Assembly (NCBI GenBank): GCA_039091535.1
Contig: JAWCLW010000003.1
Coordinates: forward strand, 2,183 to 66,182
Length of the DNA: 64,000 bases
Direction of reading: 5' to 3'
Origin: Candidatus Aenigmatarchaeota archaeon
GTDB lineage: Archaea; Aenigmatarchaeota; Aenigmatarchaeia; GW2011-AR5
Every line of letters begins with the position of its first letter. Positions within the stretch are counted from its first letter, which is position 1. This document shows, in pieces, positions 5,355 to 43,553 of the stretch. The notes below the pieces were generated by a model. The model saw nothing but the letters and a program-made list of their open reading frames with translations, was not told where the DNA came from and did not search any database. The position numbers were made by a program, and so were the translations under genes.

Positions 5355-6785
5355 TTATCCTTTTATATTTCCAATTGGTCTTAATCTTACGACTTTTTTT
5401 GCAATATTAGCCTTGTCCATAACTTCTACAACTTCCGAAACGTCTTTATATGCATTAGGCGCTTCTTCAGCCAATCCCGGAAGGCTATGACATTTTACAT
5501 ATATACCTTTGCTTTCTAACTCATGAATTAACCTATCACCTCTGAATTGCTTTTTTGCTCCAATTCTACTCATAGTTCTTCCAGCACCATGACATGATGA
5601 GCCAAATGTTAAGCGCATACCATAATCTGTACCACGTAGAATATACGATGCTGTTCCCATTGTTCCACCAATTATTACAACTTGACCAATATCTCTATGG
5701 TCATGCGGTATTTCTTCTCTATTTGGACCAAATGCACGTGTACTCCCTTTTCTATGGACATATAATTTTTTTATCTTTCCATTTATTTCATGCTTTTCTA
5801 TTTTGCACGAGTTATGAACAATATCATAAAGAGTTTTTACTTCACAACCTGGAAATATCTTTGTAAATTGTTCTCGAACAAGATGCGCAATCACTTGACG
5901 ATTTGCATAAGCATAGTTTAATGCACAACACATCGCAGAATAATATTTTTGACCTTCTTCTGAATTTATAGGCGCACATACAAGCTCACGATCTCTTATT
6001 TTTATTCCATATTTTCGTGATGCTTGATCGAGAACATGAAGATAATCTGTCCCGATCTGATGTCCAAGTGCTCGTGAACCGCAGTGAATTGAAATTAGAA
6101 TTTGATTTTTCTGCAAGTCATACACCCTTGCAGCATTTTCATCATAAATCTCATCAACATATTGAACCTCTAGATAATGATTTCCAGATCCGAGCGTTCC
6201 AACTTGCCCACGTTCACGTTTTTTTGCAGTTTCACTTACATTATTTGGATCAGCACCATCTATGCTTCCATTTTCTTCTGTATGCTCTAAATCATCTTTC
6301 GTTCCATAACCTTTTTCAACAACAAATTTTGCACCTTTTCTATATAATTCATCTGCCTCACTTCGAGATAATCTTATTTCACCTTCGCATCCAAGACCAG
6401 CAGGAACTGTTTTAAAAAGTGCATCCACAACTTGCTTTATTTTTGGTTTTACATCATTAAGCATAAGGTTTGTTTTTAATGTGCGAACACCACATCCACC
6501 ATCAAATCCAACACCACCTACAGTAATTACACCTCCATTGTCAGGATCAAATGCACCAACACCACCTATTGGAAAACCATAACCCCAATGTGCATCTGGC
6601 ATTGCTAGAGATGCTTTTTGAATTCCCGGAAGTGATGCAACATTTGTAACTTGTTCCCAAACCTTATCATCCATTTCACGTATTAATTTTTCATCTGCAA
6701 CAATAAGTCCAGGAACTAGCATTTCGCCTGTTTTTTCAATTTGCCATTCAAAATCACTAATTTTTTTGAATTTATTTATGTCCAT
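5355..6785 (-). CDS. rtcB: RNA-splicing ligase RtcB
   Basis: Motifs PDAHWGYGFPIGGV, GSGNHYLEVQ, IHCGSRALGHQ, HNSCKIEKH and GSSCHGAGR. 476 aa, with no intein-sized insertion. Confidence 0.95.
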   Translation of the reverse strand: MDINKFKKISDFEWQIEKTGEMLVPGLIVADEKLIREMDDKVWEQVTNVASLPGIQKASLAMPDAHWGYGFPIGGVGAFDPDNGGVITVGGVGFDGGCGVRTLKTNLMLNDVKPKIKQVVDALFKTVPAGLGCEGEIRLSRSEADELYRKGAKFVVEKGYGTKDDLEHTEENGSIDGADPNNVSETAKKRERGQVGTLGSGNHYLEVQYVDEIYDENAARVYDLQKNQILISIHCGSRALGHQIGTDYLHVLDQASRKYGIKIRDRELVCAPINSEEGQKYYSAMCCALNYAYANRQVIAHLVREQFTKIFPGCEVKTLYDIVHNSCKIEKHEINGKIKKLYVHRKGSTRAFGPNREEIPHDHRDIGQVVIIGGTMGTASYILRGTDYGMRLTFGSSCHGAGRTMSRIGAKKQFRGDRLIHELESKGIYVKCHSLPGLAEEAPNAYKDVSEVVEVMDKANIAKKVVRLRPIGNIKG

Positions 6786-6949
6786 TCTATCACCTTATAA
6801 CTAATATGTGTGAGAAATAAATTTGAAGTTCACACATACCCTATCCCTATGGAAATATGGCTCTTACTTCCATTCATGGAAGGTATGTATGATAGCAGTA
6901 ATTATGAAAGTGAAAATTTATAAATATTATTTTAAAGTGCGAAATTTCC

Positions 6950-7366
6950 TTAAACATCAACAACACATTGAACAATGAACTTATCACCACTTTTTTCAAC
7001 TTTTAATTGTGAGAATGTAGCCGCCTTTACCTCTAATTTTAATTCATGCTTTTCTGGATTTCTCTTTTCGCCAAATGCATACCCGGACAATTTATATTTA
7101 TTATTCTTTTTTATTTTAATTTTAAAATCAGAAAAGAAAAATCTATTAATATCCGCTTCTGCTAATAATGTATTAAGAAATTCTATAAAAAGGCCTGCAT
7201 CATCATCTGCTTCACATTTTATTTCTATTTTACTTTTTTTATCAACATTTTTTATATTACCCATAACACCAAACATAGCTTTTGCTGCTTCTTGAAATGC
7301 CTCTTCTAATGTTTTTCCAAAACCTCTTATGCCTATGTCAGCACGATGATCAAAATATTCATACAT
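6950..7366 (-). CDS. Archease (RtcB activator)
   Basis: MYEYFDHRADIGIRGFGKTLEEAFQEAAKAM and a C-terminal KAATFSQLKV pattern typical of archease. Lies immediately upstream of rtcB on the same strand. Confidence 0.9.
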   Translation of the reverse strand: MYEYFDHRADIGIRGFGKTLEEAFQEAAKAMFGVMGNIKNVDKKSKIEIKCEADDDAGLFIEFLNTLLAEADINRFFFSDFKIKIKKNNKYKLSGYAFGEKRNPEKHELKLEVKAATFSQLKVEKSGDKFIVQCVVDV

Positions 7367-15010: not shown

Positions 15011-15532
15011 ATGGATGCAAACCTTCTTGTTACATTTGACCCAAATCATATAGGAAAGGCAAGTGAGGAAGTAAAGGCTTTGCTCGAAGATATTGGTGAT
15101 TTCGAATTCCTTGATAGCAATGTGGATGGGGTTTTTCTCCTAAAAACAAAAAAAGATTCAAAAAAAATTGTAAAAGAACTGAAAGAAATTTGCAAAGAAA
15201 ACCCAAAAAAATTTGAATATACCTTTCACTGGGTACCTATAGAAAGATGGTGCAAATCAACAATTGAGGATATGATAGACGTTATGAAAGATATAGATAA
15301 TAGAATGGATCCTAACAAGAGTTGGAAGATGGATCTAAACAAACGTAATTTTAAAGAAGATACAATGAGTTTAATAATAAAACTAACAGACCATATAAAT
15401 AAACCAAAAGTTGATTTGAAAAATCCACAACAAATAGTAAAAGTGGAAATACTTGGTGACAAGACAGGTATATCATTGCTAGATGCAGATGAATTGCTAG
15501 ATATTCCTAAAATAAAAAGAGAATTTGAATAA
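15011..15532 (+). CDS. THUMP-domain-like small RNA-binding protein (tentative)
   Basis: LLVTFDPNHIGKASEEVKALLEDIG...DGVFLLKT...WVPIERW resembles stand-alone archaeal THUMP proteins. GGTGG SD upstream. Confidence 0.45.
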   Translation: MDANLLVTFDPNHIGKASEEVKALLEDIGDFEFLDSNVDGVFLLKTKKDSKKIVKELKEICKENPKKFEYTFHWVPIERWCKSTIEDMIDVMKDIDNRMDPNKSWKMDLNKRNFKEDTMSLIIKLTDHINKPKVDLKNPQQIVKVEILGDKTGISLLDADELLDIPKIKREFE

Positions 15533-16633: not shown

Positions 16634-16741
16634 ATTAACAATAATTTATGAAAAGAAAAACATAAAAAGCTTGTTTTTATCATTGGTATTTTGATATACA
16701 CAAAATTAAATTTTAAATTATTTTAATTGAAATCGATATTT

Positions 16742-17380
16742 ATGCAGTCAAAAATTGGTGTTGACGAATCTGGTAAAGGTGATTATTTTGGTTATTTAGT
16801 TGTTGCAGGTGTTTATGTAAATAAAAAAATAGAAGAAAAATTAAGATCAATGAATGTTAGAGATTCAAAACTCATTTCTGATAATATTGTTCTTGAATTA
16901 TCAAAAGAGATAAAGAAAATATGCCCTTATGAAATTTTGAAAATATCTCCAGAAAAATACAATAATCTTTATAAAAAATTTAGAAATTTGAACAAACTTC
17001 TTGCATGGGGTCATGCAAGGGTTATTGAAAATTTGTTAGAAAAAACAAGACCCGATATTGTTATAACAGATAAATTTGCAGATGAAAAATTCTTAAGAAA
17101 TGCTCTTTTTAAAAGGGGCAGATCCATTAAAATTATACAAAAAATAAAAGCTGAATCAGACATTGCTGTTGCTGCTGCATCTATACTTGCACGTGCAGAG
17201 TTCTTGAAAACATTAAAAAAACTTTCTATTGATTTAGGTTACAAATTACCTAAAGGTGCTACACACGTAGAATATGCTGCAAAATACATATTGAAAAAAT
17301 TTGGTAAAGATACCTTATACCAGGTAGCGAAGGCGCACTTCAAGATTTCAAAAAAGATATTTGAAAAGTTGAATGATTGA
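16742..17380 (+). CDS. RNase HIII-like ribonuclease H (catalytic domain only)
   Basis: GVDESGKGDYFGYLVVAGVYV, VRDSK, LNKLLAWGHARVIENLL, TDKFA, KAESDIAVAAASILARAEF, LPKGATHVEY and VAKAHFK follow the RNase HIII pattern rather than archaeal RNase HII (GIDEAGRGP). ATG at 16742. Confidence 0.7.
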   Translation: MQSKIGVDESGKGDYFGYLVVAGVYVNKKIEEKLRSMNVRDSKLISDNIVLELSKEIKKICPYEILKISPEKYNNLYKKFRNLNKLLAWGHARVIENLLEKTRPDIVITDKFADEKFLRNALFKRGRSIKIIQKIKAESDIAVAAASILARAEFLKTLKKLSIDLGYKLPKGATHVEYAAKYILKKFGKDTLYQVAKAHFKISKKIFEKLND

Positions 17381-17594: not shown

Positions 17595-18407
17595 ATGAAA
17601 ATTATAAATAAAATATTTAAGAATGTTAAAAATAAAAATCCAAAATATAAAAATTTGCTTGTAGGTTTATTATCTTTACCTTTAATTTTTACACTCTCAA
17701 TGAAAGCTGATGCACAAACAAAAATTAGATCACATTTAAGTAGATCACAAGTAACAAGACAAGTAAGATTTATAAAGCCACCGTATATAAGATTACAACC
17801 TTATTTGTATAGTTTTTATGGGTATCCATATGTATTTTATTATCCGGAGTCATATTTATATAAAGAGATAATGATTAGACAAATGTTTTGCTATCCACCA
17901 CAAAAATGGTATATTCAATTGGATGTTAAAGAAGAAACAATGAAAGAAAACAAAGAAATAGAAAGATATCAAAAAGAAATAGAAAAATTGAAAAATAGGA
18001 TTGTTGAACTTGAGAAAAAGATAGAAGAGAAGCCAAGAGAAAAAAAGGCTTATCAGCCTGGATATCAGTATGGTGGATTAATGAAAGGACAATATATTGG
18101 TGAGGCTGTATCATTTCTTAATTGGTATCTATACAATAATGGTTTTGATGGTTGGCATGCTTATACACATAGATACGTTCCTGTGGATGATAAGAAATAC
18201 ATTTTTGATGTTGTAGTGGAGGATGAGCAAAATAATCAACTTTGTATTTTTGAATTTCCTGATAAAGAAGATGCATATGAAAAAAATAAAATGGAACTAA
18301 TAGAATATGGAAAATTAAAAATACCTGCTTATGTGATAGAACCGAAAGATAAAGGTCCAGATTTTATAAAACAATTGGAAGATGTCATTTACAAAATTAT
18401 AAAATAA
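17595..18407 (+). CDS. Hypothetical secreted/membrane protein with coiled coil
   Basis: 270 aa: N-terminal hydrophobic segment (LLVGLLSLPLIFTLSMKADA), a Tyr/Pro-rich stretch, an EKLKNRIVELEKKIEE coiled coil, and an unknown C-terminal domain. Confidence 0.4.
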   Translation: MKIINKIFKNVKNKNPKYKNLLVGLLSLPLIFTLSMKADAQTKIRSHLSRSQVTRQVRFIKPPYIRLQPYLYSFYGYPYVFYYPESYLYKEIMIRQMFCYPPQKWYIQLDVKEETMKENKEIERYQKEIEKLKNRIVELEKKIEEKPREKKAYQPGYQYGGLMKGQYIGEAVSFLNWYLYNNGFDGWHAYTHRYVPVDDKKYIFDVVVEDEQNNQLCIFEFPDKEDAYEKNKMELIEYGKLKIPAYVIEPKDKGPDFIKQLEDVIYKIIK

Positions 18408-20402
18408 TTATCTACTAATTCTAGAGACATGCCCCTCTTTATAAACTTTTATCGTATTTTCTACAAATGTGTCTATTTTTGGCTCATGAGAAACTATTAT
18501 AATTTGTTTTAAATTTAATTTTTCAATAACATCACGCATCCTTTCTAATTGATCTGTGCTAAATCCGTCTGTTGGTTCATCTAAAATTAATAAGTCTTTT
18601 GTCTTTATACCTTCCAATAAGATATTTACAACTTTATTAAGTGCAAGACGATACGCAAGTGCAACAGATGTACGTTCGCCACCAGAAAGATTAGCGTATT
18701 CTGTTTCGTATCCATTCTGCTCTATTATTGGGGTAAATTGTTCATCTATACGTACATTTAATTCATCACCCATAAGAATTGTAAACCATTCTTTGAAAAA
18801 TTTATTGAATTCTTGTTGTATACTATACATTACATGCTTTTCAATTGTTTCCATAAGATTTATAAAATGCTCATCAATCCAATTTATGAGCTCACCTATG
18901 TAATAACTACGATCTTTTTCTTTCTTCTTATTCTCTATTTCTTTTTTTAGGTTTGATATCATTTCATGCATATGTTTTAACTGTTCTTCTGTCCTTGAAA
19001 TATTTTTTTCAACAAAAAGTTTTTCATTATTAATTTTATCTAATTCTCCCTCAAGAGATTTGTATTTTATTTCTATTTTGCTGTAACTTTCCAACATTGG
19101 TTTGAGGGATAATATCTTCTTATTTAATTCATCTATATCATTTTTTATACTACTCTTTTCAACTTCTAATTTTTTCATCCAATTTATATAATCATTTATT
19201 GTTTTTTCAATTTGTGACTTTTTTTCGAGAGAATAAATATTTTCAAGAATTTTTTCTATCTTTTTTTCCATATCTGAAATATTTTTTTCTATTTCTTTGC
19301 ATTCATTTATTTTATTTTCTATGCGATTATTGAATTCATCCTTATTATATACTTTTTGCCCACAAACACCACACACGCCATTTTTCAATATTTCATTCAA
19401 TTTTTCAATTTCTTTCTTTATTGCACCATAAACAGAAATTGCATCAGATTTCTTTTTTTGCATCTCAGATAATTCATTCTTTAAATCATTAATATATCCG
19501 GTAACCATAAATTTTCTAAGTTCGTCTTGATATAATTTTATTTTTGTATTCACATCTTCTATATCTATGATAATTGTTTTTAGTCTTCTTTCTTTGATCG
19601 AGAGTTCAGATTCATAATGTATAACTTCACGACTTATCTTATTTAATTTTTCTATTTCTTCTTTCGCTATGTTCATTTCAGATTTTTTTATTTCCAACCT
19701 TTTATTCACATCCTCTAAAATTTTATTTTGTTCGATAAGCTTTTTTTCAGCATCAATCTTTTCTTTTTCTATTTTCTCTAATTCCAATAATTTATTTTCT
19801 AGATCCGCTATAGATATATCAAGCATTTTTTTAATAGATCTTAATTCTGTAAGAAACATTCTTGCATTGTTTCTTATAATCCCATATTTATCAATACCAA
19901 AAATTTTTCTAAGTACTTCAATACGTTCTTTGCTTAGAAGTATAGTTTTCATCTCTTCTTGTGGTGTATAAACTGTATAACGAAATATTGGCCTATTTTT
20001 CTTTATAGCATCTCTTGGATAGCCAAGTAATTCATATATTTTTTCTGTAAGTTCAGTTGGTGAAAATTCGCGTTCGATGCCATTAATCATTAACACGCCT
20101 GAATCCTGAACAACTCCTTTATTTCTTTTAAGCACTCTTTTTACTATTATATTTTTTCCATCGAGTTCAAATTCTAATTCAACCGAACCATGGTTCTTAT
20201 CGTGTCTTAAAAGATTTGTTCCATCAAGTTCACCTTTTCTTATGCCAAATAATGCAAAATCTGCTGCAAGAAGGATTGTGGATTTTCCAGAACCAACATC
20301 TCCAGAAAGTAATACAGAACCTCTTGGAAATTCTATTTTCTCATCAATATAACTTCTTATATTTTTCAATTTTATAAATTTCAAAATCATATCAAACACC
20401 AA
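18408..20402 (-). CDS. rad50: DNA double-strand break repair ATPase Rad50 (short coiled-coil form)
   Basis: Walker A GDVGSGKSTIL, zinc hook CGVCGQ mid-protein, signature LSGGERTSVALAYRLAL, Walker B LLILDEPTDGF, and D-loop/His VSHE. Only 664 aa. Confidence 0.9.
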   Translation of the reverse strand: MVFDMILKFIKLKNIRSYIDEKIEFPRGSVLLSGDVGSGKSTILLAADFALFGIRKGELDGTNLLRHDKNHGSVELEFELDGKNIIVKRVLKRNKGVVQDSGVLMINGIEREFSPTELTEKIYELLGYPRDAIKKNRPIFRYTVYTPQEEMKTILLSKERIEVLRKIFGIDKYGIIRNNARMFLTELRSIKKMLDISIADLENKLLELEKIEKEKIDAEKKLIEQNKILEDVNKRLEIKKSEMNIAKEEIEKLNKISREVIHYESELSIKERRLKTIIIDIEDVNTKIKLYQDELRKFMVTGYINDLKNELSEMQKKKSDAISVYGAIKKEIEKLNEILKNGVCGVCGQKVYNKDEFNNRIENKINECKEIEKNISDMEKKIEKILENIYSLEKKSQIEKTINDYINWMKKLEVEKSSIKNDIDELNKKILSLKPMLESYSKIEIKYKSLEGELDKINNEKLFVEKNISRTEEQLKHMHEMISNLKKEIENKKKEKDRSYYIGELINWIDEHFINLMETIEKHVMYSIQQEFNKFFKEWFTILMGDELNVRIDEQFTPIIEQNGYETEYANLSGGERTSVALAYRLALNKVVNILLEGIKTKDLLILDEPTDGFSTDQLERMRDVIEKLNLKQIIIVSHEPKIDTFVENTIKVYKEGHVSRISR

Positions 20403-23839: not shown

Positions 23840-24910
23840 TCATCTGAAAATTTTGTTGAGTATTTCATGGGCATCTGATGCAGATATAAAATCTTCTTGT
23901 TTTTTGGTTTCTGATAATAATAATGCTCTGTGATATAACTTTTCATTTTCTGTTACTCTTGCAAGACTATCTGCATCTATAAGTCCAAAAGGATATCCTG
24001 GAAAACGAAAATCACAACTATTTTCTGCTAATGTTGCTATCACATCATTCACATCAATTTTTTTAAATTGTTCTTTCAATATTTCATATCTAAATACATG
24101 GTTAGAATTTGGATGCAATTTTGTTACAATAATCTCCGCCTTGTGGTCGGGTTGTTCTATATCAACAATTGGATAATAGTACCATTTTTTATTTGACATA
24201 ATAGCATTACCACGCTTTTTTAACACAGCTAAAAGACTGTTTCCTGTTGTTGTGAATAATGTTGATGTTTTTGCAAGACCTGAAAATATAACATTTTTTC
24301 TTATCGCTGCATCATAAACATCTTCTGAAAATATATGTTCATTTGTTACACCTGTTTGTAATGAACCATCCTTAACAATAATATCATCACAATCTAACTC
24401 ATTTTTTATAACATACTTTGCAATCTTCCATTCTGCAAATCTTCTTATAACATTAGATATTTTAGATATATCTACAATAAATATACCTTCTCTCAATGTT
24501 TGATCAAGCAAACTAAATGATAAATATTTTTCTTCTGGCAAAAATTCACTATAGTCACCCAACGGAAAGATTTCCGTTTTATATATTAATTCATTATTAC
24601 CAACCAATTTTACAATAGCGTAGAATTCTATCCTTGATTGCATTTGTGGCTTTATCTTTTTTACACCATCAAAAACATTAAAATATATGCGAATAAAATT
24701 TATTGAAAAATTTGGTGCAGATAAAATTTCAGCATTACCACCATCAACAAATGCTATCTTTCTATTTTTTTTTGATTCTAATATCTCATGAAAATTTTTA
24801 TTATCTAAAGGGATTGGCTTATACCTTTCGTCATGAAATTTTGGGTCACCATCTTCAAACTTTCTTATTTCACTTAATGAATTTGCTATTTTTTCAATTA
24901 CCCTTTTCAT
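23840..24910 (-). CDS. nurA: NurA-type 5'-3' nuclease
   Basis: 356 aa with NurA-like acidic motifs (IAFVDGGNAEI, IIVKDGSLQTG), in a cluster with herA, mre11 and rad50. Confidence 0.7.
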   Translation of the reverse strand: MKRVIEKIANSLSEIRKFEDGDPKFHDERYKPIPLDNKNFHEILESKKNRKIAFVDGGNAEILSAPNFSINFIRIYFNVFDGVKKIKPQMQSRIEFYAIVKLVGNNELIYKTEIFPLGDYSEFLPEEKYLSFSLLDQTLREGIFIVDISKISNVIRRFAEWKIAKYVIKNELDCDDIIVKDGSLQTGVTNEHIFSEDVYDAAIRKNVIFSGLAKTSTLFTTTGNSLLAVLKKRGNAIMSNKKWYYYPIVDIEQPDHKAEIIVTKLHPNSNHVFRYEILKEQFKKIDVNDVIATLAENSCDFRFPGYPFGLIDADSLARVTENEKLYHRALLLSETKKQEDFISASDAHEILNKIFR

Positions 24911-24935
24911 ATCAATTAATAAATCAGAGTAAAGT

Positions 24936-24944
24936 ATTTATAAA
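24936..24944 (+). promoter_or_regulatory. TATA-box-like element upstream of initiator tRNA
   Basis: ATTTATAAA lies about 28-36 nt upstream of tRNA position 1 (24972), consistent with archaeal promoter spacing. Confidence 0.35.
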
Positions 24945-24971
24945 TCTTAATAATATATTATTAGTTTGCAT

Positions 24972-25144
24972 AGCGAGGTGGAGCAGCCTGGAGTAAGACG
25001 CATTTTTGCGTCTTTTGATTGAATGCTCACCGGGCCCATAATCCATTTCCTTAAAAGAATGTGAGACCCGGGGGTCGTTGGTTCAAATCCCAGAGAAGAA
25101 TGTAATTAATGTAAATTAATTGGGTGAAATTCCAACCCTCGCTA
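24972..25144 (+). tRNA. Initiator tRNA-Met (CAU) interrupted by three insertions (D-loop, anticodon 37/38, T-arm)
   Basis: Acceptor AGCGAGG/CCTCGCT plus A73. D stem GAGC/GCTC. Anticodon stem CCGGG/CCCGG with loop CCCATAA. Variable GGGTC. T stem GTTGG/CCAAC with loop TTCAAAT. A1:U72 and a triple G:C in the anticodon stem. The span is 173 nt, versus about 75 nt mature. No encoded CCA. Confidence 0.8.
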
Positions 25145-25149
25145 TTTTT
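25145..25149 (+). terminator. Oligo-T tract after tRNA
   Basis: TTTTT follows the discriminator base directly. Oligo-T is the usual archaeal termination signal. Confidence 0.35.
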
Positions 25150-25874: not shown

Positions 25875-27095
25875 ATGGAGATATTAGAAAAAGCTAAAAA
25901 AATATTAAGACAACCTGTATGTGATAATTGTCTTGGACGGCAATTTGCACAATTGCTTCATGGGTATAACAACAAAGAAAGAGGTAAAATTATAAGAACA
26001 ATAATAGCCATGAGTATAGACAAAGAAGATTGCAAAACAGATATGGATTTATCAAATTTTTCTGGATTTAAATTTCATAATTTTGAATTAAAAGAAAAAT
26101 TAATCGAAAAAAAATGTTCTCTCTGTAATAATATCTTTGAAAAACTTGATATATTTTCAAAAAAAGCTATAGAAAAATCTAAAAATATCCAATTTAATAC
26201 ATTCCTTGTTGGTACAAAACTCTCCTTTGATTTGATAAGTAAAGAAGAAGAACTTTGGGAGCATATTGGCATAGATTATTGCGAGCCTATCAAAGCTGAA
26301 ATAAATAGAGAAGTTGGCAAATTGATTGAAAAGAAAATAAAAGCAAGATTCAACCCAAAGAATCCTGATGTAAATTTTATAATTGATATCGAAAAAAATT
26401 CAATAAATATAGAAATAAATCCAATTTTTATATATGGTGAATATCAGAAGCTCATAAGAGGTATACCACAAACGAAATGGCCATCTAAAAAATATAAAAC
26501 AAGTGTAGAAGAAATAATTGCAAAACCATTTATGTTAGCAACACATGGAAAGGAACATAAGTTTCATGGCCTTGGAAGAGAAGACATAGATGCAAGGTGC
26601 CTTGCATGGAGACCTTTTGTTCTTGAAATAATCGAACCAAAAATCAGAAATATAAATCTAAAAGAGATTTCAAAAAAAATATCTAATAAAATAAAGGTAA
26701 AAAAATTAAGAATATCTAATATAAGTGAGGTCAGAAAAATAAAGGAAGCACGTGTTGATAAAACATATCATGCAATAGTTGAATGCGATAAAAAAATAAC
26801 AAAAAATGATTTAGAAAAATTAAAATCACTTATAACACAAATAAGACAAAAAACACCGACACGCGTCCTTCACCGCCGTGCCGATAAACTTAGAAAAAGA
26901 AATGTAAAATATATAAAAGCAAAACTAATTAACTCTAAAAAATTTAATCTTGTAGTACGCTGTGAGGCAGGGCTTTATGTAAAGGAACTAATAAGTGGTG
27001 ATAATGATCGAACAAAACCATCTGTTTCTGAAATTTTAGGATGCAACTGTAGATGCAAGGAATTGGATGTCATCAAAATTGAAAGATACATTTAA
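25875..27095 (+). CDS. pus10: tRNA pseudouridine synthase Pus10
   Basis: N-terminal zinc motif CDNCLGRQFA...CSLCNN, a THUMP-like middle, and a catalytic region (GREDIDARCLAWRPFVLEI, KTPTRVLHRRADKLRKR). 406 aa. Confidence 0.85.
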   Translation: MEILEKAKKILRQPVCDNCLGRQFAQLLHGYNNKERGKIIRTIIAMSIDKEDCKTDMDLSNFSGFKFHNFELKEKLIEKKCSLCNNIFEKLDIFSKKAIEKSKNIQFNTFLVGTKLSFDLISKEEELWEHIGIDYCEPIKAEINREVGKLIEKKIKARFNPKNPDVNFIIDIEKNSINIEINPIFIYGEYQKLIRGIPQTKWPSKKYKTSVEEIIAKPFMLATHGKEHKFHGLGREDIDARCLAWRPFVLEIIEPKIRNINLKEISKKISNKIKVKKLRISNISEVRKIKEARVDKTYHAIVECDKKITKNDLEKLKSLITQIRQKTPTRVLHRRADKLRKRNVKYIKAKLINSKKFNLVVRCEAGLYVKELISGDNDRTKPSVSEILGCNCRCKELDVIKIERYI

Positions 27096-29817: not shown

Positions 29818-31101
29818 TTATGACTCGGTTTCAATCGCTCTTAAAAGTTTCGGCTTTTTTGTTTGTCTCCTTTTTATGAAAATATATAATAATATTAACG
29901 ATGCTATTAGTATTATTGTTATTATGAAGATATAAATTTCAATAGGTGGTTTTGCATACAAAAATATCGCTGTTGCGTGGGTCAATTGAAAAACAGAATC
30001 TTCCAAATATTTTTTCACTATATCTAATTCAATTCTAGAATTTTCATAATCGCCTTTTTCATAATATTTAATAGCTTCTTCTAATTTAGATTTTGCTAAA
30101 CTTAGGCTATTACTTGCTAATGTTATGTCAAAACCTTTCATGTGTGCTGATAAAATTTTATTTTCTATTTCTGTTATTAATAATTTATAATTTAAGATTT
30201 TTAGAATTATATCCTCTTTTATTGGTTTTTCTGTAGGTAATAAATTCAGTTCAATATTCTTTGATAGAGTAATCTCGTTAGTAATTATTTCAAGATCCAT
30301 AGTATATTGACCAGGTGGTGGATATGATGTGTTTAATGAAATTAGAAACAATGCAGTATCATTTACTGACAATCTGTTTATTTGTTTTGGATTTATATTT
30401 ATATTTACAAAGCTTGTTGTTGATACATATAATCTAAGATTGTGGACAGGTATTTCTCCAGTGTTATTTATTGTAATATTTATTAGTATACTTTGATTTT
30501 GATATAAATCTATATTATTAGGACAATATATTTCTAATTTTGGTATGCCTGCTATATATGGTTCTGAAATTACAATACCACCAGCACCAACCCCTACTGC
30601 TGAAACTGGCTGTGGTGGTAATGGTTGTGATGGATAAACAACATAAAAAATTCCCCACAACTCTGCTATTCTTGTTTCATAAGATACTCTTAGTTTTATG
30701 TAATATATACCGACTTCAGGCGGTATAAAAACAGTTTTATAACTTCTTTTCATTCCAGGATTTAAAATCACAGAATTATCAAAATATGTTGCTATGGGAA
30801 TGAGACTTCCATTTTGATAAAAATATATATACTCTTCTATTTTTGCTGTAAATGTTTTTGTTCCCGTGTTTGTAAATTCTGCTGTTATGTTTTGTGTTTC
30901 ATAAATTGTAATCTGTGGTCTATAAACAAAACCTGTTATTTTTCCTTCAAACTTTTCTTTTATACTTACATGAATATATTGCATTATAGAAAATCCAGTA
31001 ATCTTATGTACATAAGAATAGATCATAAATAGAACTATTAAAATAAATAAAATCAAAAAATATCTATCTTTATCTTTCATAATTCTTATTATGTTAAGCA
31101 A
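29818..31101 (-). CDS. Bitopic envelope protein with two Ig-like (CARDB-like) segments and a coiled coil
   Basis: N-terminal TM (YFLILFILIVLFMIYSY). Two beta-rich segments of the style ITAEFTNTGTKTF and ILINITINNTGEIPVHNLRLYV, separated by a PLPPQP linker. Helical region. C-terminal TM (IYIFIITIILIASLILLYIFI) plus KRRQTKKPK. Confidence 0.5.
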   Translation of the reverse strand: MLNIIRIMKDKDRYFLILFILIVLFMIYSYVHKITGFSIMQYIHVSIKEKFEGKITGFVYRPQITIYETQNITAEFTNTGTKTFTAKIEEYIYFYQNGSLIPIATYFDNSVILNPGMKRSYKTVFIPPEVGIYYIKLRVSYETRIAELWGIFYVVYPSQPLPPQPVSAVGVGAGGIVISEPYIAGIPKLEIYCPNNIDLYQNQSILINITINNTGEIPVHNLRLYVSTTSFVNININPKQINRLSVNDTALFLISLNTSYPPPGQYTMDLEIITNEITLSKNIELNLLPTEKPIKEDIILKILNYKLLITEIENKILSAHMKGFDITLASNSLSLAKSKLEEAIKYYEKGDYENSRIELDIVKKYLEDSVFQLTHATAIFLYAKPPIEIYIFIITIILIASLILLYIFIKRRQTKKPKLLRAIETES

Positions 31102-31687
31102 GTTTATATATAATAACAGAGATCAATAAAATTATAAAAATAGCAATAATGTAATTATTATCCTTCTGTTCATCGTTTTCTTTATCAGTTTCAATAATAG
31201 ATATATTATTTACATGTTCATTTTTTTCATTATAATTTTGTTTGTCCGTATCTATTATTAATCTAAATTCTTGTTCCTGCAAAAATGTTATCTTGTTTTC
31301 TGGTAGAACGATTTTAGCTATTATTGTAATGTTATATTGGCCCCATATAGCTCCAATTGGGAAAATTTTTATAAGAACAGGTGTGGCTGATATAACTTCA
31401 TTAGGGGATGGCAAAATAATATATTCACTTCCTGTTGTTCTATTCAAAAGAAATTTGTTTGGCTCTATAAAAATAGAAAAATTTTCAGGTACATCTTTTG
31501 CATATATTTCTATTTCGTAGGTATTATTTTCTCTATTCCAAAAAATTGCTTTGACTGTAACTGTTTCATTCTCTATAATTTTTATATAATTATTTCTTAT
31601 TGAAGAACCAATGCCAATTGCATGCGCATATGAAAAGAAAAGTATGAGTGCTATAAAAAAACTAAGGATTTTCACCATTTTTAACAC
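31094..31687 (-). CDS. Secreted, C-terminally anchored Ig-like protein
   Basis: Signal peptide (ILSFFIALILFFSYAHA), a single beta-rich domain with sequons, an acidic linker, and a C-terminal TM (IIAIFIILLISVIIYKLA). Overlaps both neighbours. Confidence 0.5.
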   Translation of the reverse strand: MLKMVKILSFFIALILFFSYAHAIGIGSSIRNNYIKIIENETVTVKAIFWNRENNTYEIEIYAKDVPENFSIFIEPNKFLLNRTTGSEYIILPSPNEVISATPVLIKIFPIGAIWGQYNITIIAKIVLPENKITFLQEQEFRLIIDTDKQNYNEKNEHVNNISIIETDKENDEQKDNNYIIAIFIILLISVIIYKLA

Positions 31688-34382
31688 CTGTTATTATAAT
31701 GGTCCCAGTGTAACGTCCAGCATAAATTGGGGGGACATTTAACCAATACCATGTTGTTATATTTGTGTTTTTGGTTACATTAGTCCTGATTGGAGTATAT
31801 GTATGTTTTAGCTCTTTTGATGTACTATATGAATTACTTACATTACTCCATGTTATGTTTCCAACACCAATAATAGAATTTAGAGTACTATTTGTTAAAT
31901 TAGTTCCTCTTATATAAAAATCTAGGTTGCAACTCCCAGGATTAACTGTTATATTATATTTGTTTTTATCGTTTCCGGGAGCTGGATTTTCTTTTGTGTT
32001 AGGATTTAATTCTCCAAAATCTATGTGAGACCATTGTAAATTAAAATCTATTGAACAAGAAAAGATAGATATAGATATATCATCTGTATTATTGCTTTGA
32101 ATTTCTTGATCAGAAGAATTAAACAAAACATCTATTCTCCAATCAGAACCTATGTCACCTGTGGCATTTATTATCCATGATAAATTGCATTGTTGATTCT
32201 TGTTTAATTCACCACAATCCTTTGTGGCATTTCTAGGTATTTCAAAAATATAGAATGGTTTATCGCCTTCTGTAGTGTTTATTGGCGTGTCTGTTTCTGG
32301 AGAAGAAAAATTATATCTTATTGTTCCATTTACATTTCCACAGTTTCCACCTCTGCATATGACAGTTGCATTTACTATGAATGTATTATTTTGTATAATA
32401 TCTATTGTTGAAAGTGTTGGTGGATATGTTATATTAACTTCTAAATACCTGAAATAATTTATATACACCCATCTTATTTCTGAAACATTCATATTTCCTA
32501 CAGAATCATTTGCATAAACTTTGAATGTATAATTTCCATTTACAAGATTTGTTTTATTTTTATACCAATTAAATTCATTACCGTCCATCGTCTCGTTTGT
32601 ACCATTCCACTCTAATTGAATCCAGTCTGGGATTTCGGACAATGTGACATTTATGTATGTATTGTTTACATCTATTGTTTCGTTATTTGGTGTCGGAGCA
32701 ACAAAGATTATTTCAGGTGGTATTGAATCAATAGAAAAATTTACTGATGCAGAAGCATTATTATTGTTTGTATCATTTACAAAAACGAATAGTTCATGCC
32801 AACCTTGTCCAACATCGATTGTAATATTTACACATCCCGGTATAGTAATATTTTCACCACCATCTATTGAATATTTACATTTATCTATTTCTATGTTATC
32901 GGTTACTGTATAATTTAGAGGGATAATTGTGGTATTATATGTAACATTAATTGGTAATTGGATTTCAATTGTTGGTGAGATTTCATCAGAATATAAATCA
33001 TATGCAAACCAAAATGGCAATGGTGCTGAATTATCTGTTGTTGCAGATAATGAGGCTGTTAATGTTCCAGTTGATGGTATTCTTGTAAATGCTGTCGAGC
33101 CACAACCAGAACCATCCCACCTATTTCCTATAAGATCATCAACAATATCACCTCTTAGTATAAAAGAATCCTCATTATCTGGAGAAGGACCAACGATAAC
33201 AACTTGATCTACATCATCTGTATTCGACCCACCAACGTCTGCCGTTATACCAGTAAAGCCGGATGGAGTCCAACATACCACATCTTGTGTCAAGGCATTG
33301 CTATCTGTGTAAGAGAATAATGCATGGGATGTTGTCCTTGTCCATGTTGTTCCAATAGTTTTTCCAGTTGTTGTTTCTATAGTACCATCTATAGGATTTG
33401 TTGCAGTAGTTGTAAAACCTTCTGTTGAGCCGTCTGCTTTCCAAATATATAAATGTGCGTCATTTTCAGAATCAGCGATTGCCATAGAAATCCTGTTACT
33501 TGACGGATCTGAAGCAAGTTCTATCCATAGATTATTACCTGCACCAGTATCAGGTCCTGCTGTATTTGTTGTATCCCAGCCTGTTATTGGGTTATATTTT
33601 CTATAATAGGTTGTTCCATCTAATGTTGTTAGGTCAAAAACTACAAGACCATTCCCACTTATACTTTCCCATACTATTCCAAACGCTGGTTGTGCTGTTG
33701 CAGCTAAGGTAGATTCAGAAATTGTTATGTTATGGATCCAAGTAGAACCATTCCATCTTGCAACACCAAATCCCGTAGTACCAGAAACACCAAGAAGCAT
33801 ATCGTCTCCTCTTGGTACAAGTTTTATCCATAAAGGTACTCCGATACCATCTAACATTATACTATTGCTTGCTCCGGGTGAAAATGTTGAACCGCAGGCT
33901 GGCGTTGGTGACCAGCCTGTACCATTCCATAAACAATAATAGGCATAATTAGTTGTTGGATCATCTGCAAAAACAATCATGGCTCTTCCTGTAGTATTTT
34001 CATAAGCAATATCAAATGCCATTTTATTTGCATTTGTTGTACTTGTTGCGCCTGTTAGGGTTCCTATTAACGACCAATCACTTTGTTGATCACAACCATC
34101 AACACATCTTAAGACGTCTAATCTCCCATCTGCTTTTAAATGAGCTACAAATTTTTCATTTTTTTTCCATGTTGCCACTATTTTTGCAAAATATATTTGT
34201 GATGAAGATGTAGAAACAGTTGAATATTCTATTCCATTTGAACTTGGATATGTATAATCTCTAACTTTTAAAACACCAGGATTAATTGTGTCACCATATA
34301 TTATTGTACCATTTGCTGCATATACTATACCTTGTAAAATTACAAAAATAGATATGAAAATTAGAAAGCATTTTATTCTCAT
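31662..34382 (-). CDS. Large secreted surface protein (repeat beta-propeller-like N-half, sequon-dense Ig-like C-half)
   Basis: 906 aa with signal peptide MRIKCFLIFISIFVILQGIVYA. Recurrent W-containing blade-like motifs (YCLWNGTGWS, VARWNGSTWI, YRKYNPITGWD, LYIWKADGST, VVCWTPSGFT, GNRWDGSGC). Several dozen NxS/T sequons in the C-terminal half. Confidence 0.6.
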   Translation of the reverse strand: MRIKCFLIFISIFVILQGIVYAANGTIIYGDTINPGVLKVRDYTYPSSNGIEYSTVSTSSSQIYFAKIVATWKKNEKFVAHLKADGRLDVLRCVDGCDQQSDWSLIGTLTGATSTTNANKMAFDIAYENTTGRAMIVFADDPTTNYAYYCLWNGTGWSPTPACGSTFSPGASNSIMLDGIGVPLWIKLVPRGDDMLLGVSGTTGFGVARWNGSTWIHNITISESTLAATAQPAFGIVWESISGNGLVVFDLTTLDGTTYYRKYNPITGWDTTNTAGPDTGAGNNLWIELASDPSSNRISMAIADSENDAHLYIWKADGSTEGFTTTATNPIDGTIETTTGKTIGTTWTRTTSHALFSYTDSNALTQDVVCWTPSGFTGITADVGGSNTDDVDQVVIVGPSPDNEDSFILRGDIVDDLIGNRWDGSGCGSTAFTRIPSTGTLTASLSATTDNSAPLPFWFAYDLYSDEISPTIEIQLPINVTYNTTIIPLNYTVTDNIEIDKCKYSIDGGENITIPGCVNITIDVGQGWHELFVFVNDTNNNNASASVNFSIDSIPPEIIFVAPTPNNETIDVNNTYINVTLSEIPDWIQLEWNGTNETMDGNEFNWYKNKTNLVNGNYTFKVYANDSVGNMNVSEIRWVYINYFRYLEVNITYPPTLSTIDIIQNNTFIVNATVICRGGNCGNVNGTIRYNFSSPETDTPINTTEGDKPFYIFEIPRNATKDCGELNKNQQCNLSWIINATGDIGSDWRIDVLFNSSDQEIQSNNTDDISISIFSCSIDFNLQWSHIDFGELNPNTKENPAPGNDKNKYNITVNPGSCNLDFYIRGTNLTNSTLNSIIGVGNITWSNVSNSYSTSKELKHTYTPIRTNVTKNTNITTWYWLNVPPIYAGRYTGTIIITGVKNGENP

Positions 34383-36371: not shown

Positions 36372-38780
36372 TTATCCCTTAGGTAATTCTATACCGAAGA
36401 CCTTTGAGACACCATCTTCCATTGAGACACCAAACACCTTGTCTGCCTCTGCTGTTGTTATATCATTGTGCGTTATAACTATGAATTGTACATCCTTTGA
36501 ATATTTCTTTATGAGATTTGTTATTTTTTTTGTGTTTGCTTTATCCAATGCAGCATCTACTTCATCTAAGACATAAAATGGTGCAGATTTATATTGCATT
36601 AATGCAAAAAGAAATGCAAGCGATGCCAACGTCTTTTCACCACCAGACATCGAATCTAAATTTAAAACATTTTTTCCACTTGGACTTGCTTCTATGATTA
36701 ATCCAGAATCTATGTTATTTTCTACCTCTAATCTTATTGTTCCAAAACCATTTGTTAGGTCTTTATAAATCCTTGTGAAATTTTCTGCTATACCATTTAA
36801 TGTTTCCATGAATTTATCACGTCTCTTTTTTTCAACCTCTTGAACAATCTTTAATATTGCATCCTTTTCTTCAATTAATTTATCTAATTTTTTCTTTAAT
36901 TCTTCAAATTCAATATTTATTGTCTGATACTCCTCTATTGCTTTCATGTTTACAGGACCAAGCTTGTTAATTTCAATTATGTATTTTTTTACAAGTTCTT
37001 GCAATTCATCTTCTGAAAGCTTCAAAAATTCTTTTACATCTTTATAATCTTCAAATTCTAGTTTTAGATTTGATAATGTTGCTTCAAGATGCGCCTTTTC
37101 TATTTTCAACTTTGTTATGTTATTTTGCAGAACTATTCTTTCTTCGTATATTGTTTTTCTTTTGTTTCTATAATCTTCAATAGTTTTTTCTATTTCTGAT
37201 TTTTCTTTCTGCAGTTTCATAACATCTTCTGATTCTTCTTTTTCTAATTTTTTAACATTCTCCAACTCTTTTTCAAGTTTTTCTATTTCAAATATCAATT
37301 TTTTATTTTCATCCTCTAATTTTTTTATCTCGTTTGAATGTATAGCATGTTTCTTTTGATAAAAACCACCTATCATTGCTCCTGATATCTCTATAAGGTC
37401 ACCATCAAGTGTTACAATTCTGAAGCCCGGGATCTTTTTTGCGGTATCTATATCTTTTACGACTAGAGTGTTTCCAAGAACATACTCCATTGCTGGATAA
37501 TATTTTTTATCAAATTTTACCAAATCAATCGCATATCCTATTATATCACCTTTGTATTGTTTTTTCTTTTTTCCCTTTATTTTATTTAATGGTAAAAATC
37601 TTGCTCTTCCTATTTTATTTTCCTTGAGATGTTTTATACAAAATGAAGCTACATCATCTGTAGAAACAATAATGTCATTTTTATGTTTGCCTATTGCAAC
37701 ATCTAATGCTATTTCATATTTTTTTGGTATTTCTATAAGGCTTGAAACAGTCCCATAAATTTCATCGTGTTTAAGATTTAATATCTCTTTTATTACCGGC
37801 TTCTCAAAATATATACTTTTCAAACGTTGAAGCTCGCGTTCGTTTAAATCTATTTTGTCCTTTTTTCTTAATATTTCCATTTGAAGAGAATCAATTTTTT
37901 TCATTATTTCATAATTTCTCGATCTTTTAATTATTTCATCATTTATTTTCTGTATTTTTTTCTCTTTATCTTCTAATTCTGTTTCTATTGTTCTGAACTC
38001 TTTTTCGAGTTTATCAAATTTTTCTGTATTTTCTCTTATATCTTTGTCTAATATTTTCATTTTTTCTTCTGTATTATCTAATCTTTTTTTAATAAGAGAT
38101 GCTTTTGCCCTCTTTAATTCTTCACTTAGTTTTTGATATTTTTCTGCATTTTCTTTTTCTTGCTTAAGTCTAATAACAAGTTTTTGTTTTTCTGCAACAA
38201 CAATCATGTTTTCCCTTACACGTGTTTCAACTTTTTCTAACTCTTTTGTTGCCTTTTCACGTTTTTCATCAAATTCCTTTATACCAGATATTTCATCTAT
38301 AATTTCTCTTCTTTCGAGAGGAGACATCTCTATGATTTTTGTTACATCACCTTGCATTATTATGTTATAACCTTCTGCTGACAGATTTGCATAAGATAAT
38401 ATATCAAGAATTTTTGATCTGGTTACTGTCCGGCCATTGAGTTTATAAATTGATATCCCATTTCTACTCACCCTTCTCATAATCTTGATTTCTTTTTCTC
38501 CAGGTATTTTATTATCATTATTATCTAAATATAATGATACTTCACAAAATTCAGCAGGTTTTCTATTTTTTCCACCATTGAAAATAAGATTTTGTAGTTT
38601 TTGTGCTCTGATGCTTCTTGCAGATGTTGTCCCAAGTACAAACATAATTGCATCTATTATGTTTGATTTCCCTGATCCATTTGGGCCTGCGATCACATTG
38701 AAGCCTTCTGGAAATGGTATTGTCACTCTATTTCCAAATGACTTAAATCCATATAATGTTATTCTATTAAGACGAACCAT
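36372..38780 (-). CDS. smc: Chromosome segregation ATPase SMC (short-arm form)
   Basis: Walker A GPNGSGKSNIIDAI, hinge (IYGTVSSLIEI...GRARFLPLNKI...TLDGDLIEISGAMIGG), signature SGGEKTLASLAFLFAL, and Walker B FYVLDEVDAALD. Only 802 aa. Confidence 0.95.
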   Translation of the reverse strand: MVRLNRITLYGFKSFGNRVTIPFPEGFNVIAGPNGSGKSNIIDAIMFVLGTTSARSIRAQKLQNLIFNGGKNRKPAEFCEVSLYLDNNDNKIPGEKEIKIMRRVSRNGISIYKLNGRTVTRSKILDILSYANLSAEGYNIIMQGDVTKIIEMSPLERREIIDEISGIKEFDEKREKATKELEKVETRVRENMIVVAEKQKLVIRLKQEKENAEKYQKLSEELKRAKASLIKKRLDNTEEKMKILDKDIRENTEKFDKLEKEFRTIETELEDKEKKIQKINDEIIKRSRNYEIMKKIDSLQMEILRKKDKIDLNERELQRLKSIYFEKPVIKEILNLKHDEIYGTVSSLIEIPKKYEIALDVAIGKHKNDIIVSTDDVASFCIKHLKENKIGRARFLPLNKIKGKKKKQYKGDIIGYAIDLVKFDKKYYPAMEYVLGNTLVVKDIDTAKKIPGFRIVTLDGDLIEISGAMIGGFYQKKHAIHSNEIKKLEDENKKLIFEIEKLEKELENVKKLEKEESEDVMKLQKEKSEIEKTIEDYRNKRKTIYEERIVLQNNITKLKIEKAHLEATLSNLKLEFEDYKDVKEFLKLSEDELQELVKKYIIEINKLGPVNMKAIEEYQTINIEFEELKKKLDKLIEEKDAILKIVQEVEKKRRDKFMETLNGIAENFTRIYKDLTNGFGTIRLEVENNIDSGLIIEASPSGKNVLNLDSMSGGEKTLASLAFLFALMQYKSAPFYVLDEVDAALDKANTKKITNLIKKYSKDVQFIVITHNDITTAEADKVFGVSMEDGVSKVFGIELPKG

Positions 38781-42221: not shown

Positions 42222-43553
42222 ATGAATCGTCGAGAGATTATTGAATATTATTCCAGAGAAGAAATAATAAACGAATTATTGAAAAATGCAAAAAATAGGG
42301 AGATAGTAGGTGCATTCTGGGATGGAACATACGATAAAAGACCAAATATAATTCAATATAAGAATGATATAGTGCAAATGGCAAAAAATGGCGTTGTTTC
42401 ATTTCATTTTTCTGTTGAGCAATGGAGTAATCCAATGGCGATAAGCGCCGATAATTATAATAAATTAAGAATTGGATGGGATATGATTATAGATGTTGAT
42501 TCTAAATTAGGATTAGAAGAAGCAAAAATTGCAACAGAGATGATATGCAAACTCTTGGAAAAATATGGAATAAAAAATTATGGATTGAAATTCTCAGGTA
42601 GACGAGGATTTCATATATCCTTACCATGGATTATGTTTCCAAAAGAAATAGATTATAAACCACTTACGAGATTGTATCCAAAAATACCTAGAATAATTGC
42701 AAGATTCATAAGAAAAAAAATTTCTGAAGATCTAATGAAAGAATTAATCAGAATGAGTGGAGCAAAAAAACTTATAGAAATCTTAGGTGAAGTTCCATCA
42801 AAGATGAATCCATTCTATTTTGTTGAAGTAGAAAAGGATTGGGGAAACAGACATATGTTTAGAGCTCCTTATTCTCTAAATGAAAAGACGTGGCTTGTTT
42901 CATTACCGATAAAATTTTCTCAACTTAAGAATTTTTCACCTGAAATAGCAAATCCTAATAATATAAAAATCTATGATGAATTCTTCAAGGGTGAAGAGGG
43001 TGAAGGAATATATCTACTTACAGATGCATTAGATTGGTATGCCATAATTAAGAAGGAAAAACCTAAAAAAGAAGTTACAAAAATAAATTGGGAAAAAAAG
43101 ATAACAGAGGATTTGTTTCCACCATGCATAAAATCAATTCTTTCTGGTTTGAGTGATGGCAGAAAGCGCAGTATATTTACGCTTGTTAATTTCCTAAGAA
43201 TGTGTAACTGGAACTGGCAAGAAATAGAGGATAAAGTATTTGAATGGAATACAAAAAATAAGCAACAATTACCAAGAAATATTATACTTAGCCAATTAAG
43301 ATGGAGTCAACAAAATCAAATGAATCCAGCAAACTGCGACAATGATTTGTTTTATTCTGATATTGGTATATGTAAGCCTGATGATATATGTAAAGGCAAA
43401 ACAGACAAAATAATAATAAAAAATCCACTTTCGTATCCATTTAAAAAAATGAAACTAAGACCAAGGATTAGACGTGGTTTTTCTTGTGATATTTGTGGCA
43501 AAGAATTTAAAACAATGAATGGTCTAAACTATCATAAAGGAAGATATCATTAA
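42222..43553 (+). CDS. DNA primase, single-polypeptide PriS catalytic domain + PriL-CTD-like domain + C-terminal C2H2 zinc finger
   Basis: PriS motifs MIIDVDS (DxD), KFSGRRGFHISLPW and FRAPYSLNEKT. Then PPCIKSILSG...GRKRSIFTLVNFLRMCNW plus further Cys (NCDND, ICKPDDIC), as in the PriL Fe-S domain. Terminal FSCDICGKEFKTMNGLNYHKGRYH. Confidence 0.8.
   Translation: MNRREIIEYYSREEIINELLKNAKNREIVGAFWDGTYDKRPNIIQYKNDIVQMAKNGVVSFHFSVEQWSNPMAISADNYNKLRIGWDMIIDVDSKLGLEEAKIATEMICKLLEKYGIKNYGLKFSGRRGFHISLPWIMFPKEIDYKPLTRLYPKIPRIIARFIRKKISEDLMKELIRMSGAKKLIEILGEVPSKMNPFYFVEVEKDWGNRHMFRAPYSLNEKTWLVSLPIKFSQLKNFSPEIANPNNIKIYDEFFKGEEGEGIYLLTDALDWYAIIKKEKPKKEVTKINWEKKITEDLFPPCIKSILSGLSDGRKRSIFTLVNFLRMCNWNWQEIEDKVFEWNTKNKQQLPRNIILSQLRWSQQNQMNPANCDNDLFYSDIGICKPDDICKGKTDKIIIKNPLSYPFKKMKLRPRIRRGFSCDICGKEFKTMNGLNYHKGRYH

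Follow-up and report, generated by a model that had tools for sequence, protein, structure and literature searches.

Archaeal tRNA genes can be interrupted by up to three introns, chiefly in the Thermoproteales and also in ARMAN, Nanoarchaeum, Korarchaeum and Methanopyrus (PMC4033280, PMC4090602). The tRNA-Pro(UGG) gene of Pyrobaculum islandicum, for example, has introns at positions 25/26, 37/38 and 56/57 (PMC4090602, PMC4033280). The subject of this study is a locus at positions 24972-25144 (+) of a 64,000-nucleotide stretch of contig JAWCLW010000003.1 (hereafter the window, meaning the whole stretch that was analysed), from a Candidatus Aenigmatarchaeota archaeon. With a probability of roughly 0.8, we consider the locus to be a functional initiator tRNA-Met(CAU) gene of this uncultured hot-spring DPANN archaeon, interrupted by three introns.

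An earlier note on this DNA, made by reading the letters alone, had stated that multiple non-canonical introns occur in a few archaeal lineages, with which the literature agrees (PMC4033280, PMC4090602). It had also described the presence of three introns in an initiator tRNA as unusual. Three are indeed present, at positions 21/22, 37/38 and 59/60, but three is the known maximum, and the gene sets no record (PMC4033280). It is another case of a known, though rare, kind of three-intron archaeal tRNA gene.

The likeness to the multi-intron tRNAs of the Thermoproteales and of ARMAN-1/2 extends to the arrangement of the introns, one of which is canonical while the other two are non-canonical and lie in the D and T arms, with junctions of the bulge-helix-bulge (BHB) type or its relaxed hBH and HBh' forms. 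Removal by the splicing endonuclease EndA and joining by the ligase RtcB would also be held in common. Unlike the Thermoproteales cases, the host here is a DPANN archaeon, the tRNA is the initiator, the non-canonical sites are 21/22 and 59/60, and the geometry of the D-loop intron is off by 5 nt.

Two further systems bear comparison. The pre-tRNA-Glu(UUC) of Methanopyrus kandleri has a canonical intron and a relaxed HBh' intron in the D-loop, as does the window gene (PMC5829648). In both, the intact 5' bulge would be easily cut, whereas the disrupted 3' site would need a broad-specificity enzyme; the window gene differs in the identity of the tRNA and in lineage, in having a third intron, and in a 3' site that is ambiguous by 5 nt. 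In Thermofilum pendens the initiator tRNA-iMet gene is permuted (PMC4090602), in place of which the window gene has three introns in cis. The features that stand out in the window gene are the disagreement of 5 nt over the D-loop 3' splice site, and a cytidine at position 33 (C33) that is found clade-wide in DPANN initiators.

Homologs and layout of the initiator locus

Homologous genes were collected by scanning metagenomes with the anticodon-arm pattern CACCGGGCYCATA-N(1-31)-CCCGGRGGTC, which matched at least 120 loci. Among the matches listed are 36 archaeal-type initiators, defined by A1:U72 and the absence of an encoded CCA; they represent 16 distinct sequences, 14 of them intronless. Two of the homolog contigs are named as Ca. 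Pacearchaeota and Nanoarchaeota metagenome-assembled genomes, and the identity between proteins encoded on the homolog contigs and those of the window is only 35-41%, from which it follows that the homologs come from distant DPANN relatives. Elongator-type tRNA-Met genes with the same anticodon stem, found in the same scan, have G1:C72 and U33.

Alignment of the window locus with nine homologs using MAFFT gave exactly three gaps, of 30, 25 and 43 nt. When the exons are joined, 72 of the 75 positions are identical to the intronless initiator L110, and 71/75 to L049 and L040. The cloverleaf of the aligned family (15 members) has 99.3% of its cells paired, with compensatory changes at 6 pairs, a level reached by none of 500 shuffles (0/500). 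The exons have a G+C content of 62.7%, compared with 28-33% for the inserts and 24% for the flanks. Taken together, the 72/75 identity, the three-gap alignment, the contrast in G+C and the compensatory changes indicate that the locus is a genuine initiator tRNA gene under selection, and not a chance pattern.

The locus (24972-25144, +) comprises four exons and three introns, all on the forward strand, and the joined exon sequence is AGCGAGGTGGAGCAGCCTGGAGTGCTCACCGGGCCCATAACCCGGGGGTCGTTGGTTCAAATCCAACCCTCGCTA (75 nt). Exon 1 (24972-24994, tRNA positions 1-21) contains AGCGAGG, U8, G9, the D-stem strand GAGC and the D-loop sequence AGCCTGGAGT; all of its 23 nt are the same as in L049, and the motif scan described below also cuts after 24994. 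It is followed by the D-loop intron at position 21/22 (24995-25024), 30 nt long by homology, which is a gap in all nine homologs. Exon 2 (25025-25040, positions 22-37) has the same sequence as in the C33 homologs, and consists of GCTC, A26, CCGGG, C32, C33, C34, A35, U36 and A37. The canonical anticodon intron (25041-25065, 25 nt, position 37/38) separates it from exon 3 (25066-25087, positions 38-59), which holds A38, CCCGG, the variable loop GGGTC, the T-stem strand GTTGG and TTCAAA. The T-loop intron (25088-25130, 43 nt, position 59/60) then leads to exon 4 (25131-25144, positions 60-73), with U60, CCAAC, CCTCGCT and the discriminator A, and without an encoded CCA. These two introns are likewise gaps against the homologs, and the resulting T arm is the same as that of L110.

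Removal of the inserts produces a cloverleaf with stems of 7, 4, 5 and 5 bp, in which there are 21 pairs and 0 mismatches. The acceptor stem pairs AGCGAGG (24972-78) with CCTCGCT (25137-43), and is followed by the discriminator A25144. The stems named in the earlier note were all found where it had placed them. Its D stem, GAGC (24981-84)/GCTC (25025-28), is split by 40 nt that contain the hairpin AGACGC-ATTTTT-GCGTCT (24996-25013), which can be extended to 8 bp, and its anticodon stem CCGGG/CCCGG (25030-34/25067-71) encloses 32 nt, made up of CCCATAA plus 25. The T stem GTTGG/CCAAC (25077-81/25132-36) encloses 50 nt, that is TTCAAAT plus 43, as had been read; the boundaries given for this intron (25089-25131) are shifted to 25088-25130 by the BHB motif, which leaves the spliced product unchanged.

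The nucleotides conserved for tertiary structure are all present (U8, A14, G18G19, G53, T54-T55-C56, A58, C61). The initiator identity elements read from the sequence are the anticodon CAU, A1:U72, A11:U24, and three G:C pairs at 29-31:39-41. All the archaeal initiator elements that had been listed beforehand (A1:U72, the three G:C pairs and CAU) are thus borne out, and A1:U72 does not vary among the 15 members aligned. The sequence of the locus is identical in contigs from two independent runs of one hot-spring metagenome study; the second run (X2), having the same sequence at the locus, gave no variant information.

We infer the transcription, cleavage, ligation and function of the locus from its sequence, along the following lines. 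A TATA-box-like element, TTTATAAAT, is read at 24937-24945 (+), 27-35 nt 5' of tRNA position 1; this placement is consistent with the general layout of archaeal promoters, and the element is a putative promoter. Directly 3' of the discriminator base is a T5 run (25145-25149, +), likely to be an archaeal oligo-T terminator, and the homologs, which also end in ...CGCTA, likewise continue into T-rich sequence. Transcription from the TATA-like element, some 30 nt upstream, to this oligo-T run would yield a precursor of about 175-180 nt. The three introns, one following position 21 in the D-loop, one at the canonical 37/38 site and one at 59/60 in the T-loop, would each be excised by EndA at a BHB-type motif. 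The four exons would be joined by RtcB, whose gene lies in the window, and CCA would be added after ligation.

The initiator tRNA is indispensable to any cell, and here it escapes both ARAGORN and the Rfam tRNA model owing to its three introns, having been revealed by manual reading and homology. ARAGORN found zero tRNAs in the whole 64-kb window, and Rfam gave no match at the locus even at E<=10, its sole tRNA match in the window being at 48623-48737. When the locus is spliced in silico, ARAGORN returns a clean tRNA-Met(CAT) cloverleaf, in keeping with the claim that the cloverleaf forms only after three segments have been removed. DPANN genome bins often seem to be without essential tRNAs. 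The occurrence of "unidentified disrupted tRNA genes" is expected in DPANN lineages (PMC5829648).

Relatives with introns are also found among the homologs. One intron each is present in L044 (18 nt, position 37/38) and in L127, in the T arm. L127 (tRNA at approximately 750-850) is an archaeal-type initiator with U33, and its 24-nt intron lies between T-stem position 53 and T54. In T. pendens, L044, L127 and the window gene alike, an essential initiator is tolerated in disrupted form, and would depend on the BHB splicing machinery. No further intron-bearing tRNAs came to light when nine DPANN loci were scanned with Rfam.

The earlier note had proposed a comparison with orthologous initiator genes in related genomes. 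This was possible in part: distant DPANN relatives define the exons, but none of the genes compared comes from a close relative. AMMECR1 proteins in GTDB genomes are at most 57% identical, with no initiator tRNA nearby, and NurA homologs reach at most 47%, with no closer relative among them. The contig of an RtcB relative with 84% identity (L145, 405 kb) has another gene order, and the 10 kb to either side of that gene contain no tRNA. In the contigs of Pus10 relatives (L147-L151) the order AMMECR1-Pus10-L21e-Rpb4 is kept, with no tRNA upstream.

Splice motifs and the 3' boundary of the D-loop intron

All pairs of cuts were scanned for a BHB motif, taken on each strand as a helix h, a 4-bp helix H, a 3-nt bulge that is cut after its second nucleotide, and a helix h'. 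Below, a slash within a bulge marks the cut. The top hit of the scan is the T-loop intron, which has a strict hBHBh' motif (H=4, h=5, h'=5), formed by h GTTGG/CCAAC, H TTCA/TGAA, the bulges AA/T and AT/T, and h' CCCAG.../...TGGG. Its cuts restore TTCAAAT exactly, and the intron also holds an inner AATTAAT/ATTAATT hairpin. A strict motif of this quality is found in the window at a rate of 2.4e-6 per candidate site pair, yet this one lies exactly on the homology junction. Loose BHB patterns, by comparison, are no rarer in the window itself than after shuffling, which leaves about 380 per window. They are common in AT-rich sequence such as this, so only their coincidence with a homology junction counts.

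The anticodon intron has a relaxed motif of the hBH type. Helix h is the anticodon stem (5 bp), H is CCCA/TGTG with a C33-U mismatch (3/4), the bulges are TA/A and AG/A, and h' has only 1 bp; the minimum free energy fold favours another register. In the 37/38 intron of L044, H likewise has 3/4 pairs. The same geometric rule gives a canonical tRNA for the T-loop and 37/38 introns of the window gene, for the intron of the tRNA-Ser gene also found in the window, and for the introns of L127 and L044. The L127 intron, which is of the HBh' type with h=0 and for which the rule still restores the canonical tRNA exactly, serves as a calibration case.

At the D-loop, the intron contains an 8-bp hairpin (24995-25002/25007-25014). 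Here the scan found an HBh' motif for the cut pair 24994/25020, in which H is TGGA/TTTG (4 pairs, one A-U and three G-U), the bulge is GT/A, h=1 and h'=6-7; motifs of this type have a background rate of 8.9e-5 per site pair. The 5' cut, 24994/24995, coincides with the homology junction ...GGAGT/. The geometric 3' cut, 25019/25020, lies 5 nt upstream of the homology boundary at 25024/25025, and leaves TGAAT (25020-25024) in the D-loop. The cut pair that is consistent with homology has a poor motif, with H TGGA/TTGA at 3/4 pairs (a G-G mismatch), h=0 and h'=0. Other cut pairs were considered (24993/25021, 24993/25024, 24992/25023, 24995/25019 and 24995/25025), and none has a better motif than 24994/25020. 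Nearest-neighbour folding favours neither of the two D cut pairs, the forced-fold energies being -49.6 kcal/mol for the geometric pair, -52.8 for the homology-consistent pair, and -54.7 without H.

A search for BHB motifs at the three junctions, which had been suggested as a check, therefore has a mixed outcome: it gave a strict motif at the T-loop and relaxed motifs at 37/38 (hBH) and at the D-loop (HBh'), but in the last of these the 3' cut is 5 nt off. The hBH and HBh' forms are cut by EndA enzymes that have specific loops or broad specificity, and several DPANN lineages carry such enzymes (PMC5829648). With relaxed motifs at two of its three introns, the gene leads one to expect an EndA of broad specificity in this organism, such as has been described from other DPANN lineages. 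The locus is a potential test substrate for EndA, in that its precursor combines a strict motif with two relaxed ones, and its D-loop 3' site is a natural case of conflict between the geometric rule and exact restoration of the tRNA.

For the 3' end of the D-loop intron there are two possibilities: either the intron is excised precisely by way of a relaxed 3' site, giving a 75-nt tRNA, or UGAAU is kept, giving 80 nt. The second, with cuts at 24994/24995 and 25019/25020 and a D-loop of 15 nt in the mature initiator, is a variant of the functional-gene explanation and not an alternative to it. It has in its favour that the sole well-formed motif in the D region has its 5' cut exactly on the homology junction, that the same rule restores the canonical sequence for every other intron checked, and that removal of TGAAT (25020-24) brings geometry and homology into agreement. 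On this last ground TGAAT may be a 5-nt insertion at the D junction, as the sequence suggests. Set against retention of UGAAU are the D-loops of the archaeal-type initiators among the matches listed, which are of 10 nt or less in all 36, and the cost of an H with three G-U pairs and one A-U pair (-49.6 kcal/mol, compared with -54.7 when it is not formed). To our knowledge, D-loops of 15 nt have not been described, which also counts against it. We regard the 80-nt product as possible, but less likely than not.

The D-loop intron has one other property. It is a G+C-rich hairpin with a T5 loop (25003-25007), followed by T4 (25013-25016), which has the look of a terminator inside the gene.

The second tRNA gene of the window, at 48623-48737 (+), is a tRNA-Ser(GGA) gene of 115 nt, which was missed by ARAGORN and found by Rfam. 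Its variable arm is interrupted by a 28-nt intron (48679-48706) that is non-canonical and has a good BHB motif, with H CGTC/GACG and an h of 5 bp. Both tRNA genes of the window therefore bear non-canonical introns, with four introns altogether. The similar introns in different tRNA genes that characterize intron transposition in the Thermoproteales have no parallel among them: in a blastn-short search of the window and 151 loci (covering two tRNA genes from this genome), none of the four introns was found a second time.

Cytidine at position 33 of the anticodon loop

The anticodon loop reads C32-C33-C34-A35-U36-A37-A38 under any choice of splice boundaries. The reading of C33 made at the outset is upheld, whereas the suspicion attached to it, that C33 might come from misplaced boundaries, is not. 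Exon joins that would restore U33 were looked for by hand and rejected, there being no T-CAT-AA segment in the 3' part. The same loop (CCCAUAA) is found in 33 of the 36 archaeal-type initiators among the matches listed, most of them intronless, with U33 in 3, in a sample biased by a search pattern that fixed the anticodon stem. This recurrence indicates that C33 is a clade trait of DPANN initiators, and not an error, a private mutation or an artefact of the boundaries. Within the window it is confined to the initiator, the tRNA-Ser(GGA) having U33.

C33 had also been called unusual. This holds in general, but in the DPANN clade it is the rule, and it is known in the initiators of multicellular eukaryotes, including human, mouse, C. 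elegans, Drosophila and Arabidopsis (PMC8887486). It blocks the t6A37 enzymes of bacteria and yeast, for which it is an anti-determinant (PMC8887486), and is also found in the tRNA-Cys(GCA) of Sulfolobales (PMC7668247). The literature searched holds no mention of C33 in archaeal initiators, where it may nonetheless have been reported. The human initiator has the same C32-C33-CAU-A37-A38 loop beside three G:C pairs as the window gene. In contrast to the eukaryotic C33 initiators the window gene is archaeal (A1:U72), and the C33 of DPANN probably arose independently of that of eukaryotes.

C33 may matter for anticodon-loop modification in DPANN initiators. If the 80-nt product discussed above were real, it would represent an initiator architecture without a described counterpart, in a DPANN clade in which C33 replaces U33. 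A 15-nt D-loop together with C33 would point to lineage-specific remodelling of initiator recognition, for which the candidates are the U-turn, the t6A37 determinants, and the way in which aIF2 or the ribosomal P site recognizes the tRNA.

Most C33 relatives (L025, L031, L033, L040, L049, L055, L059, L069, L083 and L143) are 76 nt long. Their T stem has an additional nucleotide, apparently bulged, in its 5' strand (as in GCG-T-GG TTCAAAT CCCGC); this nucleotide is missing from the window gene, L110 and L062. The same scan also yielded bacterial-type initiators with C33 (L027, L050, L058, L076, L084, L090, L134 and others). These have a mismatch at 1:72, some with an encoded CCA, and may derive from candidate-phyla bacteria.

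Competing explanations and genomic surroundings

Several observations weigh against a functional three-intron initiator gene. Under the strict geometric rule the D-loop intron is not precisely excisable, and its T5 run (25003-25007) might function as a weak archaeal terminator. No EndA was found among the 30 window ORFs (open reading frames) scanned. Searches by synteny and homology retrieved no orthologue from a close relative, and a relative with a Pus10 of 71% identity has no tRNA upstream of its AMMECR1 gene. The one metatranscriptome of the same study (X4) has nothing at the locus, but is uninformative for a tRNA in exons of 14-23 nt. Finally, intronless archaeal-type initiators occur on other contigs of the same hot-spring runs (X1, X2, X3, compared with L110:1070-1144), at depths of 4.6-21.7 against 6.8 for the window contig, and with ...AGCGGG or ...AGCGAG as the upstream sequence. 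They may belong to other DPANN organisms, or be a second, intact copy in the same genome, in which case the locus would not be the single initiator gene that the earlier note took it for.

If the latter were so, the locus could be a decaying or non-functional copy, with the working initiator encoded elsewhere. The offset of 5 nt at the D-intron 3' site, the internal T5 run, the lack of RNA evidence for the locus, and intronless initiators in the same runs at comparable depth (4.6-21.7 vs 6.8) would all fit such a pseudogene. What makes this improbable is the condition of the sequence: the 21 cloverleaf pairs contain 0 mismatches, the universally conserved positions are intact, the perfect T-loop BHB has been maintained, promoter-like and terminator-like signals are in place, and the sequence is identical in two samples. 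The exons, moreover, have kept a G+C content of 63% in a background of 24-29%, pointing to ongoing selection. The idea that tRNA-like fragments have come together here by chance, or are a mere part of the mechanical ORF 24703-24996 (+), can be set aside almost completely. Rfam and ARAGORN are silent at the locus, and the ORF does overlap its 5' end; but this ORF has a TTG start, crosses the NurA promoter region, and has nothing to support it. Joined exons that are 96% identical to real initiator genes, the exact three-gap alignment, the strict BHB on a junction and the sharp G+C contrast between exons and inserts all speak against chance, and the homolog alignment, the identity and the 0/500 shuffles refute it. 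We thus favour a functional initiator gene with three introns.

The organism is AT-rich (29% G+C), and the G+C content of the window is 25-34%. The window contains archaeal genes for HerA, NurA, Mre11/Rad50-like proteins, AMMECR1, Pus10, L21e, RpoF, RtcB and Cbf5, together with RNase HII, an SMC protein with ScpA and ScpB, and a fused PriS-PriL-like primase. The initiator gene is flanked by NurA and AMMECR1, whereas its neighbours in the distant C33 relatives are RNase HII and SMC. The RtcB gene (5355-6785, -) encodes a 3'-phosphate/5'-OH RNA ligase, identified by NCBIfam RtcB models and Pfam PF01139, and is 84% identical to P0122 (on L145) and about 70% identical to proteins from Aenigm-, Pace- and Woesearchaeota. 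For Pus10, the best named relatives are all from Candidatus Aenigm(at)archaeota, with 60-66% identity. These matches, with those of NurA, fit an uncultured DPANN archaeon probably related to Aenigmatarchaeota, to which no genome in the collections searched is close.

Genes for RNA processing are abundant in the window, encoding RtcB (5355-6785), a THUMP-domain protein (15011-15532), RNase HII (16727-17380), Pus10 (25875-27095) and Cbf5 (45171-46124). An ORF of 443 aa (42222-43553, +) has weak matches to both PriS and PriL, and is possibly a fused primase; the SMC protein (802 aa, 36372-38780, -) and Rad50 (664 aa, 18408-20402, -) are both short. The PriS-PriL-like ORF and the short SMC and Rad50 are signs of a reduced genome. 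Two ORFs, at 31662-34382 (-, 906 aa) and 29818-31101 (-, 427 aa), have no NCBIfam match. L145, the contig of the RtcB relative with 84% identity, has a run of five called ORFs of very small size at 5929-7088, where no RNA family matches, and at 18005-19558 a NifU-like gene with an intein, recognized by its Intein_splicing and LAGLIDADG domains.

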